From contig JBDRPD010000003.1 in NCBI GenBank assembly GCA_043827405.1, positions 32,001 through 96,000 on the forward strand: DNA of 64,000 nt, read 5' to 3'. The notes below the pieces were generated by a model, which was not told the origin of the DNA, ran no database searches, and saw only the letters and a list, made by a program, of their open reading frames with translations. Shown one piece after another: positions 1 to 4,705 of the stretch. This DNA comes from Elusimicrobiota bacterium (GTDB taxonomy: Bacteria; Elusimicrobiota; Elusimicrobia; UBA1565). The stretch's first letter is position 1; the number at the start of each line of letters is the position of its first letter. The position numbers and the translations under genes were made by a program.

Positions 1-1316
1 GCCGGGCCGGGAAAGAAGGGCTTCTGAAGCTCGCCGTCCGGCAATGGGGCGGCCATGAGGAGTCTTAGTTCCTCTCCCCGCTCGAGGATTAGTTCATCGG
101 CCTGCAGAACTTCGAGATCCTTGGACAGCAGCGATGTTTCAGCCCGCAATAGATCGTCTTTTTCCGCTTCGTAGCGCTGGGCAAGCTTTTTTGTCGTGTC
201 GAGGAATTCGCGCGCGTCCTCCCGGGAACCGCTGAGAACCTTTTTGTTCTCGTGGCTGAGCCAGAGCTCCGTATAAGCGGTTGCGACCCGTTGGGCGAGC
301 AGTTCAGAGGCGCGGTCGAGATCCGCCCGGGCCGCGCGCACGTCGATAGCCGCTTCCCGCAGCGCGCTGCGTTCGGGGCGGCCGATAAAGCCTTTGAGCA
401 GGGATTGCGTTACGGATAGATCAAGCTTGGATCTCGTGCGCGGATTGAGGGTGAAGGTGGAGCTGACGTCGTCGATCTCTTTGGCCAGCGAGGAGTCGAG
501 CGCGAGGCCGGTGCCGGTGGCGAAGCGCTTGGCCAGCCCGATGCCGGCGCTGTCGGTGATGGTGCGCGGGGTTTGGAAAAACACGGCGGGCGGCGTTTTG
601 GCATCGAGGCGTTGGATGGCGGCGCTGATCGACGTGTCGTAAGCGCCGAGCAGCGCCAGTTGCCGGGCCAGCGCCGCCTGATGCGCGGCGCGGACGGGGG
701 CAAGTTCGGGATTGTTTTTCAGCGCGCTGTGCACCGCGGTCAGCACCGGAAAGGGGGGGCGGTGTACGCTGGGGACCGACAAGGCGTCCGCGGTGCCGGG
801 AATCGCCAGCAGCAGCGCGCCGAGCAGGGGCAGCAGCTTGGCCCGGATATTCGCCATGGCGGAGCGCATCGTTTTCCTTTCCGCGCCGGAGACGCCGGCG
901 TAGATGGTCTTGAGCAGCTTGATAATGCCGGGCCAGAAGGCGCGTATTTTTTTGCGCCCGGCCGGCGTGATCTCGATCAGGGTTATCCGGCGGTCTGCGC
1001 GGGTGCGCAGACGGCGTACCAGTCCGGCCTTCTCCAGCGTATCGGTCAAGCCGGTCACGTTGGCCTGGGAGACCAGCAGCTGCATGCTGACCGCGCTCAT
1101 CGGCAGCGGTCTCTCCTGGCCGTCGAGCAGGAACAGGATGCCCATGGCCGGCGGCGTCAGGCCATGCGGCCGGAGCTGCTTGGAGAGGGTGCGAAAGAGC
1201 ATGTCGAAGGTGCGGATGATGCCGATATGCGTCTCGATGAGTTCGGGATCGAATCCGGGATAGTTCTCCGCCATGTGGGCGAAGCGCTCGCGCATGGGAT
1301 CTTTCGGCTGCGGCAT
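1..1316 (-). CDS. MarR-family regulator fused in frame to a TolC/outer-membrane efflux protein (3' end beyond the window edge)
   Basis: Manual translation from ATG 1316 has no stop down to base 1. N-terminal part is MarR-like: LRPHGLTPPAMGILFLL...ANVTGLTDTLEKAGLVRRLRTRADRRITLIEITPAG. It is followed by a signal-like stretch AKLLPLLGALLLAIPGTADA and OEP-type segments ALKNNPEL, LSVTQSLLKG, VATAYTEL, DLLRAE. Not in the ORF track because no stop lies in the window. Confidence 0.85.
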   Translation of the reverse strand, partial: MPQPKDPMRERFAHMAENYPGFDPELIETHIGIIRTFDMLFRTLSKQLRPHGLTPPAMGILFLLDGQERPLPMSAVSMQLLVSQANVTGLTDTLEKAGLVRRLRTRADRRITLIEITPAGRKKIRAFWPGIIKLLKTIYAGVSGAERKTMRSAMANIRAKLLPLLGALLLAIPGTADALSVPSVHRPPFPVLTAVHSALKNNPELAPVRAAHQAALARQLALLGAYDTSISAAIQRLDAKTPPAVFFQTPRTITDSAGIGLAKRFATGTGLALDSSLAKEIDDVSSTFTLNPRTRSKLDLSVTQSLLKGFIGRPERSALREAAIDVRAARADLDRASELLAQRVATAYTELWLSHENKKVLSGSREDAREFLDTTKKLAQRYEAEKDDLLRAETSLLSKDLEVLQADELILERGEELRLLMAAPLPDGELQKPFFPGP

Positions 1317-1327
1317 GCCCTAGGATA

Positions 1328-1347
1328 ATACTTAAGGACTTAACTAT
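1328..1347. promoter_or_regulatory. Imperfect palindrome ATACTTAAG-GA-CTTAACTAT, candidate MarR operator
   Basis: 8/9 bp inverted repeat directly upstream of the -10-like TATCCT (1327-1322) of the MarR gene. Confidence 0.55.
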
Positions 1348-1483
1348 CAAGGCCTAAATATTATTGCAGGTCCACCGGCCCAGGCCCCGGTGGGCCGATT
1401 TATCGGGCTATTTTGGGACTTTGGACACGCGGGGAAGGGAGCTTCTTCCATATATAATCCAGATACCTGAGGAGAAACCCATT

Positions 1484-4400
1484 ATGAAACATCTACGCAC
1501 AGCGCTTACCGTCTTCATTTCCGTCAGCCTGATCACTTTGTCGCCCGGACTCGGCGCCTATCGCGCCTGTGCCAGCATGATCGGCGCGGCGACGGCGGTC
1601 AAAGGTTCCGCCGCCGGCGTCAACGGCGCGGTCGGCGCGGCCGTCGGCAATCCCGCTCTCATCCGCTCCCTGAGCGTGACTCCCGTCAACCTGAACCTCA
1701 ACTCCGGCGTTCTTCCCGGTATGAGTTCGCTGCCGGGTTCCGTTATCGCGCCGCATGCGGGTGTCCGGCTTGCGCCCAGCCTGATGGTTCAGACGCAGAT
1801 TTCAGGCGCGGCGGCGGCGCTTCCGCTCAAGGCGGCGCTTTCCGTCAAGACGAGCCGTGCGCCGCCGGCGGCAAAAAAGACGCAGTCTCTCCTCAAGAGC
1901 CTCAGCCTTGCGCTGCCCAAGTTCGGCGAGATGTCCGGCGCCGAGGCCAAGTCCTCCGCCCAGACCGACTTCCTGAGCCGTATCGGCAGCTATAAGTCCC
2001 GCGGCGAGTCCGCCGCGGTCGCGCCCAAGGCCTCGGTCTTTCAGAGCCTGCGGCGTGGAATGCGGCTGAGCGCCGCCAAGAAGTCCTCCAAGAAAGAGGA
2101 TATGCCGGACTACGGGCGCGATGATGATCGCAGTTCGGAACCGGACTATAATGATCTGGACGAGCTGGGCAATGAACGCCGCCGGCAGGACCCCGGTCCG
2201 GACGATGGCTACGACGAGTTCGGCGGCGACGGCGGCCGCGGCAACAGCGATCTTTTCGGCTTCATGCCCTTGGTGTTCGCGGGCTCGAGCCTGTTTATCG
2301 CGCCGCTCTTGGGCGCGCTTTCGCTCCCGGTGATGATCGGCACCTATCTCGCCGTCGTCCTGCCGTCTTTGGTGCTCCATGAGATGGGCCATGCCTGGGC
2401 GGCCGACAAGCTCGGCGACCCCAGCGCCCGCCTCGCCGGACGCATGAGCTTCAGCCCCCGGAACCTCTGGAATCACCTGAATATGCCGCTGAGCTTCAAC
2501 CTTTTCGGCCGGCAAATCTCCATCCCGCTGGGCATGAGCTTCGTGCTGCCGCTTGGGATGATGACGATCTCAATGCTGACTGTGGGCGTGCCGATCCTGT
2601 TCGGCGGCGCGCGGCCGGTTCAGGTCAATTCCGGCAATCTCGCGAGCCCCGCGCAGAACCGGACGGCCGCCAAGGGCATGGGACTTGTCGCCTTGGCCGG
2701 CCCGGCGGTTAACTTCGGCATCGCCGCGCTCGCCGGCCTGACGCATTTCGGTCTCATGGCCGCGGGCGTGGGCGGCGCGGTGCTGCCGGTTCTGGCGGCT
2801 TCGGTCTTCCTTAATGTGCTGCTCGGAGTCTTCAACCTGCTGCCGTTCGCGCCGCTTGACGGGCATCATGTCGGGCGCTCGTTTCTCGCCGACACCCTCG
2901 GCCGGCCGGACTGGGCCGAGAAGGCTTACGGCAGCGCCGAAGGCTATATGAGTCCGGCCGCCCGCGCGGTCAATATCTACGGGCTGATCGGAACGGTTCT
3001 GTTCATGCTGGGGCCGGTGCTGGGCGCGGTGCATTTGATCTCGAGCGTCTTCCTCGCCGGCTCATCGTGGCTGGTGAGCTCGGGCGCGCTGGCGGCGTCG
3101 GGCGTTCTCCCGGCGGTCGGCGCGCTGGGTCTCATGGTCGGCCAAATCCTCGGCGGCGGCAGCACCATGGGCGGCAATTCGGACGGCGCCAAGTCGGAGC
3201 CGGCCGTTGAGATTCCGGACGCCCGCGAGCTTATCGTACGCTTTGACGGCGCGAAGTCGAAGCTTTCGGCGGACCATCATCTCAGCCTGGTGGACGTCGG
3301 CGCCCAGGGCGGCATGCGGCTCTATCAGGCGACCGTGCAGGGGATGATGGCGCAGCTGCACCTGTCGGGTCTGGACATGAGCCTGCTCCACCGCTTCGGC
3401 GCCACTCCGATCGCCACCTATAAAAGGATAAACGCGGCGACCCTGCGCATGCCGGCCTCGCAGAAGGACGCCATGAAGCAGGCGCTCACAGCGCGCGGCT
3501 TCAAGGTCTACGAGAACGAGCGGCGCGAGATCGTGCGCCCGATCGAGGACGATCCGAACGTGCAGATGCCGCAGGCCGCGCCGCAGCGGGGAGCGGTTTC
3601 TATGAAGGAGACGCTCGAAATTTCCACTATGGACAAGGTCCATGAAGCGGCACGCCAGCGGTGGGGTTCGCCGCAGCGCAGCGACTGGCGCGCGCGGCTG
3701 CTGAACTTCCTGCTCACCAAGGTGCTGCGCGGCAGCATCGCGCAGCCCAATATCGGCGTCATCGATACCGGGGTGGAGAAAGACCATCCGCTGATCGCCC
3801 CCGGCCTTAAAGCCGCCAAGGACGTCGATCCCAACGGCAGCGGCGCCGACAGGAACGGGCATGGGACCTGGGTGACGTCTATGGTGTTCTGGTTCGCCCC
3901 CTGGCTCAAGAATATCACGCATTATAAAATCTTCGGCGATAACGGCGGGGCGACCCTCGACGACGTGCTCAAGGGTCTGACCATGGCCGGCAACGACAAG
4001 AACATCGTCATCTCCAACTCCTGGGGCTCCGACGACGGCGACCCGAACAGCCCGGACTCCATGCTGGTCAAGAAGTTGGCGGAAGAGGGGCATATCATGG
4101 TATTCGCCGCCGGGAACGCCGGCTATCGGGGCGCCAATACCATCGGCTCTCCCGCGATATCGCATTACGTGGACGCCAAGACCGGCGCGCCCCGGGTGAT
4201 CGCGATCGCCTCTACCGACCGCAATAAGGCGGTTTCGAGCTTCTCCTCCAAGGGGCCGGGCAGCCGCAAGACGCGCAATATCCCGGATTATCCGCGCAAA
4301 CCCAACGCCGCCGAGCAGGGCGACAATACCGAGGGCGCCTGGCTGGGCGGCAGGACCCGGGCCATTTCCGGAACCTCGATGTCGACCCCGAAGTTCGCGG

Positions 4401-4705
4401 GGACGATTGCCATGCTGGCGCAGCTCTTCGGCGTGACCGAGGTCGGCGAGGACCTCGACCGGATCGTCAACGCCGTTATGGGCACTCTCGTGAACCCGAA
4501 AAATGAGACGCCGACGGCCATCGGGGACGGCTTCAGCGCCGCTTACGCCGCCTATGAGCGGCTTAATGCGACCGGCTTCATGCCGGTTAAGCGCGGGCTG
4601 GTCCGGCGCCTGCTTATTTGGCTGCTGGACCGCGCTCAGGTCGGCGGCGAGGCGCCAAAAGCGCCGCCCGCTCCCGCGGCAGACGAAAGAAACGTAGAAA
4701 AATAA
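1484..4705 (+). CDS. Site-2 protease (M50) / subtilisin-like (S8) fusion protein with N-terminal signal-like sequence
   Basis: SD AGGAG before ATG 1484. M50 motifs HEMGH (2378-2392) and NLLPFAPLDG (2834-2863) lie among hydrophobic segments. S8 triad: GVIDTG (D at 3764), NGHGT (H at 3860), GTSMSTP (S at 4376); oxyanion motif AAGNAG. Confidence 0.9.
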   Translation: MKHLRTALTVFISVSLITLSPGLGAYRACASMIGAATAVKGSAAGVNGAVGAAVGNPALIRSLSVTPVNLNLNSGVLPGMSSLPGSVIAPHAGVRLAPSLMVQTQISGAAAALPLKAALSVKTSRAPPAAKKTQSLLKSLSLALPKFGEMSGAEAKSSAQTDFLSRIGSYKSRGESAAVAPKASVFQSLRRGMRLSAAKKSSKKEDMPDYGRDDDRSSEPDYNDLDELGNERRRQDPGPDDGYDEFGGDGGRGNSDLFGFMPLVFAGSSLFIAPLLGALSLPVMIGTYLAVVLPSLVLHEMGHAWAADKLGDPSARLAGRMSFSPRNLWNHLNMPLSFNLFGRQISIPLGMSFVLPLGMMTISMLTVGVPILFGGARPVQVNSGNLASPAQNRTAAKGMGLVALAGPAVNFGIAALAGLTHFGLMAAGVGGAVLPVLAASVFLNVLLGVFNLLPFAPLDGHHVGRSFLADTLGRPDWAEKAYGSAEGYMSPAARAVNIYGLIGTVLFMLGPVLGAVHLISSVFLAGSSWLVSSGALAASGVLPAVGALGLMVGQILGGGSTMGGNSDGAKSEPAVEIPDARELIVRFDGAKSKLSADHHLSLVDVGAQGGMRLYQATVQGMMAQLHLSGLDMSLLHRFGATPIATYKRINAATLRMPASQKDAMKQALTARGFKVYENERREIVRPIEDDPNVQMPQAAPQRGAVSMKETLEISTMDKVHEAARQRWGSPQRSDWRARLLNFLLTKVLRGSIAQPNIGVIDTGVEKDHPLIAPGLKAAKDVDPNGSGADRNGHGTWVTSMVFWFAPWLKNITHYKIFGDNGGATLDDVLKGLTMAGNDKNIVISNSWGSDDGDPNSPDSMLVKKLAEEGHIMVFAAGNAGYRGANTIGSPAISHYVDAKTGAPRVIAIASTDRNKAVSSFSSKGPGSRKTRNIPDYPRKPNAAEQGDNTEGAWLGGRTRAISGTSMSTPKFAGTIAMLAQLFGVTEVGEDLDRIVNAVMGTLVNPKNETPTAIGDGFSAAYAAYERLNATGFMPVKRGLVRRLLIWLLDRAQVGGEAPKAPPAPAADERNVEK

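Follow-up and report, generated by a model that had tools for sequence, protein, structure and literature searches.

One Reading Frame Encodes a MarR Domain and a TolC-like Channel

The DNA analysed here, a stretch of 64,000 nucleotides referred to as the window, belongs to an Elusimicrobiota genome that is a metagenome-assembled draft in 108 contigs, and corresponds to G000:C3:32001-96000. At its left edge, on the minus strand, lies a gene that joins a MarR-family repressor to a TolC-like outer-membrane factor (OMF) without a stop between them, and the genomes that carry this fused gene form a group of uncultured groundwater Elusimicrobiota. From its sequence, and at a probability of about 0.6, we take the 645-aa product to be a conserved fusion precursor that would be cut by signal peptidase I. 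As the first-pass annotation of the window had noted, the frame runs uninterrupted from the ATG at 1316 to the window edge (3..1316, 438 aa, 3′ end open), and when DNA outside the window is used it is complete at 645 aa with a normal stop (L002 11379..13316, minus strand). Residues 1-160 (837..1316) form a MarR-family winged-helix repressor domain and residues 161-178 (783..836) an internal signal-peptide-like segment. A predicted mature TolC-like OMF follows, of which the first 260 residues (179-438) are encoded at 1..782 and the rest (439-645) outside the window at G000:C3:31379-32000. Internal start signals are found at 855..879, also on the minus strand: AAGGA (879-875) stands 5 nt ahead of an ATG at 869-867 (M150), exactly as the annotation had it, and a further ATG at 857-855 encodes M154.

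The MarR half is complete in its architecture, its winged helix having helices on both the N- and the C-terminal side. Searched against the MarR-family entries of Pfam (PF01047 / PF12802), it scored 42.6-42.9 bits for MarR_2 at residues 51-111 (cut-off 27) and 37.9-38.3 bits for MarR (cut-off 24.6). In addition, 27 solved MarR-family sequences match this half, the best being 22oz_A (166 aa), whose residues 5-155 align to residues 6-155 of the query with an E value of 2e-13. The best NCBIfam regulator match, the MprA profile NF008122, aligns to residues 57-160, with a score (33.8 bits) far under the curated cut-off of 157 for the MprA/EmrR equivalog. Foldseek returned the MarR proteins HpaR (22oz_D, rank 40) and MftR for the N-terminal part. 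An AlphaFold2 (AF2) model, with a mean predicted local distance difference test (pLDDT) score of 69.7 from a 9-row alignment, displays the pattern of helices and wing expected for MarR and places the last MarR helix at residues 144-171. Stand-alone MarR relatives (e.g., P0018, 175 aa; 39-41% identity) end a few residues past this same helix. The claim of "about 150 aa of MarR" was therefore right about the domain and short on its boundary, which the alignments to 22oz_A and to the MprA profile put at residues 155 and 160, respectively; with MarR extending to about 155-160, both M150 and M154 fall inside its last helix.

The OEP-type repeats that had been seen behind the signal-like stretch are also confirmed. 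Two tandem OEP repeats are recognized by Pfam (PF02321, 95.8 bits, cut-off 22) at residues 193-406 and 444-627 (best stretch), and Foldseek matched the C-terminal part with probability 1.00 to CmeC (4mt4, E 1.6e-8), TolC (1ek9), OprM (1wp1), VceC, CusC (3pik) and MtrE (4mt0). In the AF2 model, pLDDT drops below 50 in the strand regions of the channel monomer (234-311 and 476-524). The more specialized profiles stay far from their cut-offs, with 33.5 bits for the TolC type I secretion profile TIGR01844 (cut-off 225.15) and 20 bits for the NodT lipoprotein profile TIGR01845 (cut-off 210.05). Neither an N-terminal Sec signal peptide nor a Cys lipobox was found in the 645-aa protein, in which the sole signal-like segment is the internal one at residues 161-178.

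Where the first strand and loop of the OEP half lie, at residues 238-252 of P0001 (about 561-605 of the window, minus strand), we also noted a motif of the form D-x-K-T-P-P-x-x-F-F-x-x-P-x-T. It is invariant, being kept by every member of the close family.

The Junction Resembles a Cleavable Signal Peptide

The stretch from M150 to A178 reads as it was quoted in the first-pass annotation. Within it, segment 161-178 opens with 12 residues rich in Leu (161-172), which make up the core, and closes with PGTADA as the c-region. The part of an n-region is taken by two basic residues of the MarR helix, R158 and K160, and A176 and A178 occupy positions -3 and -1. Residues 158-178 thus follow the general rule for Sec export and signal peptidase I, namely a basic n-region, about 7-15 hydrophobic residues as the core and small, uncharged residues at -3/-1, and a cut is predicted after A178.

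We read this junction in 16 fused proteins: nine from alignment A1, three translated (from G002, G016 and G011) and four distant ones (P0011, P0020, P0035 and P0092). In all 16, basic residues at the end of the MarR helix are followed by an uncharged stretch of 12-25 aa, which is 16 residues long in nine of them, and small residues are found at -3/-1 throughout (e.g., ADA, AHS, SQA, ASA, ARA). Between the predicted cut and the first OEP helix, length varies and there is little conservation. The internal segment itself looks like the signal peptide that stand-alone OEPs carry at their N-termini, and its core is short, like that of a cleaved signal.

The Fusion Is Conserved and Has Been Made or Undone Several Times

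A word-index search returned nine proteins besides the query, comprising six full-length fusions (636-695 aa, 50-64% identity, with Pfam MarR and OEP matches), two cut pieces that extend across the junction and one distant plain OEP. Where the source annotation names the fused proteins at all, they are called TolC family proteins of Elusimicrobiota metagenome-assembled genomes. The genome comparison covered 41 genomes, i.e., our own and 40 relatives, and placed the fusion in five of them including our own, which amounts to 3 of the 10 sampled genera of family f1. Full-length, stop-free matches are present in G003 (53%), G016 (45%) and G002 (45%), and in G011 the fused copy is split across two contig ends. 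The fusion, whose conservation the first-pass annotation had wanted checked, is thus conserved, and the condition that would have refuted it, separate marR and tolC genes in all relatives, does not hold. Identity is 47-63% over the MarR half and 51-66% over the OEP half, and such equal divergence is as expected if both halves are under selection. Moreover, window positions 1-1048 are covered, with 10 substitutions and no gaps, by a contig that comes from another study's run (X2), which means that a slightly different strain carries the same fused frame and that the frame is not an assembly slip.

Two apparent fusions were rejected. At G022:C31, one 587-aa frame had appeared to hold both matches, and a separate 169-aa MarR frame is found there. 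A 661-aa frame with an OEP match on C54 proved to be an ordinary 463-aa OEP with an N-terminal signal.

Scans of genome and metagenome contig collections gave three loci each, mostly duplicating genomes that had already been found. An exhaustive protein search produced 8,072 matches at E≤0.001 and only 10 at E≤1e-30, indicating that the close family is small, and at the scale of the phylum any match at E≤1e-20 is seen in 14 of 401 genomes. Fused forms also occur at a greater distance, namely P0011 (670 aa), P0020 (591 aa), P0035 (608 aa) and P0092 (627 aa). P0035 is encoded in G386, a genome of family f9 in the same class, and P0092 bears the source label "PVC group bacterium".

In BLASTP comparisons against our OEP half, 108 of 111 stand-alone OEPs outscore the OEP half of P0011, and the OEP halves of P0020 and P0035 gave no match at E≤1e-3. 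We built a quick maximum-likelihood tree from 11 fused and 32 stand-alone OEP halves, with rows taken by BLAST rank and a length of 420-560 aa and with the cut proteins P0006 and P0009 left out. The seven rows of the close fused clade group together with support 100 and have stand-alone OEPs as their sister group (support 99), and the fused forms fall in at least four separate places, at least four state changes lying across well-supported branches, with long-branch joins possible for the P0020/P0035 pair. The state changes imply that the MarR-OEP join has been made or undone several times, and its repeated making or keeping is as expected if the internal signal peptide still works. Repeated separate joins suggest a general and easily reached evolutionary route. 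No paper on a MarR-OEP or regulator-OMF fusion was found in the literature searched, a set outside which subscription journals lay.

Promoter, Candidate Operator and Gene Neighborhood

A sigma-70-type promoter is predicted for the fused gene at 1322..1350 (minus strand), with TTGATA at 1350-1345, a 17-nt spacer and TATCCT at 1327-1322, which leaves 5 nt between the second hexamer and the ATG. The promoter-site scan found one promoter-like site against a mean of 0.2 in shuffled sequences. The layout is shared by all five lineages aligned (our own, G003, G002, G016 and L026), in each of which TTGAyA-17 nt-TAnAnT ends 5-7 nt before the ATG; given this distance, the mRNA of the fused gene is probably leaderless. 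A T/A-rich block is the best-conserved upstream part across the five lineages. Within the spacer (1332..1343, minus strand) lies a short inverted repeat, TTAAG-TC-CTTAA, the arms of which are perfect in our genome and in L026 and imperfect (3-4 of 5 positions) in G003, G016 and G002. We regard TTAAG-N2-CTTAA (N2-3 across the lineages) as a candidate MarR operator, which would give classical autorepression. Two metatranscriptome runs of the source study yielded no match to the stretch, a result that has no bearing on expression.

At every locus with downstream sequence (our own, G003, G002, G016, G011 and L026), an AcrB-type RND pump gene overlaps or abuts the end of the fused gene. In our genome it follows the OEP part just outside the window (L002 8224..11406, i.e., G000:C3:28224-31406), and the RND-downstream arrangement was also read at L023, L025, L026, L005, L024 and L033. 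No periplasmic adaptor (MFP) gene was found in the operon at the six fused loci with downstream sequence. Matches to the adaptor profile TIGR01730 in our genome are confined to other contigs (C40, C71, C68 and C7), those on C71, C68 and C7 sitting beside ordinary OEP genes. G408 likewise has no adaptor at its RND gene, which is preceded by a TetR gene and an unfused OEP whose N-terminal signal is ordinary, and absence of the adaptor is hence not peculiar to the fusion.

On its other side, the fused gene is flanked by a divergent gene (window 1484..4705, plus strand) that encodes a protein of about 1,073 aa with a site-2-protease-type Peptidase_M50 domain (HExxH, LDG) and a C-terminal subtilase domain, Peptidase_S8. 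Two proteases combined in one membrane protein are an unusual arrangement. A gene of this kind (protein of about 1,100 aa) adjoins the fused gene, in divergent orientation, in all five fusion-bearing genomes. We considered it as a dedicated protease for freeing MarR and dropped the idea, since 21 of the 41 genomes have homologues with both domains and 34 have some match at E≤1e-10, compared with five for the fusion; a role as a MarR-freeing partner is thus a loose possibility. Upstream of its start is a GC-rich hairpin followed by a T-run (window 1386..1407, plus strand; inverted repeats 1369-1378 and 1387-1396), and this terminator-like hairpin, being in the position of a 5′ leader, may be a regulatory one.

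Farther along, downstream of the RND gene, is a gene pair for TldD/PmbA-type metallopeptidases (L002 2959..6359, i.e., G000:C3:22959-26359; L023 11192..12964). A PtsI-like gene lies between the RND gene and the pair in our genome, and the pair follows directly in G003. Together with the gene for the M50 and S8 domains, the pair makes the neighborhood rich in proteases, and it is conceivable that there is a link to peptide processing or export.

A Proposed Route from One Chain to Two Proteins

MarR proteins act on DNA in the cytoplasm and OMFs are trimeric barrels of the outer membrane. A cytoplasmic transcription factor and an outer-membrane β-barrel cannot work as one chain, and the cell is thus forced to separate them. 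For the fused product we infer its targeting, its cleavage, the fate of its MarR piece and its autoregulation as follows. The MarR domain (residues 1-160) would fold in the cytoplasm, and residues 161-172 would serve as an internal N-in signal sequence that brings the nascent chain to SecYEG. The TolC-like part would then be threaded into the periplasm and signal peptidase I would cut after A178, whereupon a 467-aa channel subunit would proceed to the outer membrane via the β-barrel assembly machinery (BAM). Three signal peptidase I homologues and BamA are encoded in our genome.

What would stay behind, at the inner face of the inner membrane, is a 178-aa MarR piece with a short hydrophobic tail. 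With only 12 residues the tail is too short for a stable anchor, and the piece may therefore come off the membrane, either unaided or once trimmed. It would dimerize and repress its own promoter through TTAAG-N2-CTTAA, either loosely tethered or after removal of the tail by proteases that clear signal peptides. RseP is described as eliminating signal peptides from the membrane (PMC8144685).

Several observations weigh against this proposal. The -3/-1 residues were read by eye, using a rule of thumb and not a trained predictor, and AF2 confidence is below 50 at residues 163-185, i.e., over the junction itself. An output of repressor and channel at 1:1 is an odd dosage for a repressor. How well bacterial signal peptidase cuts behind a folded cytoplasmic domain of 160 residues is known from examples only. 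Finally, an ATG, TTG or GTG is found within 12 codons ahead of the core in four of the six lineages for which DNA is available, and in our gene AAGGA-5 nt-ATG (879-867) precedes the segment such that a start at M150 gives a well-formed signal peptide.

These last points belong to the chief rival, nested translation, in which most of the channel would be made from M150 (or M154) with an ordinary N-terminal signal peptide and the full chain would be a minor product or the source of MarR. Shine-Dalgarno (SD) sequences are used in this organism, an example being GAGGAGAAA ahead of the ATG of the neighboring gene at 1484, and the probably leaderless main start might be weakly translated. The start codon itself, however, is not conserved. 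Methionine is found in the M150 column of the alignment only in P0001 and P0002, and a Met within 12 residues ahead of the core in 6 of the 16 fused proteins. At the DNA level, the ATG of our gene (with the further ATG at M154) is replaced by TTG in G002, with more in-frame TTG codons close by, and in G016, with more of them upstream, which would leave a start available in these two genomes. It is CTA in G011, where a GTG stands one codon earlier, CTG in G003 and ATC in L026. No canonical start is present in the 25 codons ahead of the core in G003, whose sole nearby ATG sits within the hydrophobic core, and in L026 the nearest is an ATG 29 codons ahead of it. As neither has an ATG, GTG or TTG in the 25-28 codons before the core, the channel must there derive from the full chain.

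The candidate ribosome-binding sequence fares no better than the codon. In the close X2 strain, a C>T change at 877 turns AAGGA into AAAGA (R147K), and the SD-like purine run encodes a conserved E-R/K-K motif of the MarR helix. Within the window, 13 of 288 internal in-frame ATGs in 35 proxy genes (4.5%) have an equally good 5-mer SD upstream by chance, and 37 of 288 have the 4-mer core, so that AAGGA with an ATG at M150 is weakly above chance. Besides, ribosomes starting at 1316 would still produce the full chain, which would need disposal in any case. Of the two mechanisms that the first-pass annotation had offered, the cut of the full chain by signal peptidase fits the junction conserved in 16 of 16 proteins, whereas nested translation leans on an M150 and an AAGGA that are not conserved. 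Judging from these sequences, nested initiation may add some channel in our organism and may also occur where TTG or GTG are present, but it cannot be what the family as a whole depends on, and we consider it unlikely as the principal route.

The cleaved precursor could also be given a further role. The fusion might be a regulatory device in which each exported channel leaves one membrane-held MarR, and intramembrane proteolysis then releases or destroys the repressor, coupling transcription of the pump to the success of export. We advance this extension with considerable doubt.

It is improbable, by contrast, that the protein remains uncut as a bitopic, ToxR/CadC-like regulator with a permanent signal-anchor and a TolC-like part tethered to the inner membrane. 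An N-in DNA-binding domain, a single hydrophobic segment and a periplasmic C-terminal part are the topology of membrane-bound winged-helix regulators, and an operon without an adaptor gene makes an unusual assembly conceivable. But a 12-residue core with a conserved small-x-small site is typical of cleaved signals, an adaptor-less RND gene is also found behind the stand-alone OEP of G408, and a full two-repeat OMF fold requires the outer membrane. A TolC protomer has its N-terminus at the equatorial domain, a long way from the inner membrane, and with a linker of only about 10-25 residues past the site an uncut chain could thus not reach into both membranes. Least probable by far is that the frame is an artefact of assembly or sequencing, or that a stop codon was lost very recently, inactivating the gene and leaving it without function; a recently lost stop was an alternative that the first-pass annotation had also allowed for. 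The draft nature of the genome, in 108 metagenome-assembled contigs, speaks for it, but the same frame is intact in the independent X2 contig, the fusion recurs in four other genomes of two further genera and in eight database proteins, and both halves are under similar constraint.

Implications of an Internal Cut

If the precursor is indeed cut at the junction, it would show, as a natural case in a bacterium, signal peptidase at work on a signal peptide behind a folded domain of 160 residues, and it would yield a MarR repressor that arises at the membrane in a 1:1 ratio with the channel under its control. This would raise testable questions about how internal signals are targeted to Sec, what becomes of long remnants of signal peptides and what logic of dosage efflux regulation follows. 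Should the fusion be a regulatory device as well, it would parallel, in bacteria, the way in which viral core proteins mature through signal peptidase and signal-peptide peptidase. The public label "TolC family protein" renders the regulator half of these proteins invisible to regulon mining.

Comparison with Known Systems

MarR-family autorepressors are known as first genes of efflux operons, examples being E. coli MprA/EmrR with emrAB and MarR with marRAB. The present locus resembles these in that a complete MarR winged helix heads an efflux operon, and the short inverted repeat in its own promoter is a candidate for their palindromic operator; it differs in that there is no stop, the last MarR helix running on into the signal peptide of the channel. 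In the relatives of family f2, marR, OEP, adaptor and MFS genes stand side by side without being joined. Compared with TolC, OprM and CmeC, the channel half has the same two OEP repeats and matches them in fold, whereas its export signal is internal, 160 residues from the N-terminus, the lipobox Cys is missing and the operon has no adaptor.

The closest parallels to the predicted mechanism are polyproteins split at internal signal peptides and membrane-bound winged-helix regulators. The FbcH cytochrome b-c1 precursor of Bradyrhizobium is reportedly split by signal peptidase at an internal signal peptide. In FbcH and in the glycoprotein precursors of flaviviruses and bunyaviruses, the logic would be the same as that predicted here: one chain contains a signal peptide in its interior, and cleavage on the trans side parts a cytoplasmic or membrane N-terminal part from an exported part. 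What sets the present chain apart is that it begins with a soluble transcription factor and that the part to be exported is a β-barrel channel of the outer membrane; the cleavage is a predicted one.

With ToxR/CadC and with regulators released by RseP, the fused protein shares a DNA-binding or regulatory domain on the cytoplasmic (N-in) side and, behind it, a single hydrophobic segment. RseA and FecR are described as site-2-protease-released regulators that are cut by RseP (PMC8144685), and by analogy RseP-type proteases could free the MarR piece. In contrast to ToxR/CadC, the hydrophobic segment looks cleavable here and no sensor domain is attached after the predicted cut. The parts of the system, a MarR autorepressor, an OMF and an RND pump, are ordinary; their joint architecture was described in no paper that the literature searches found.

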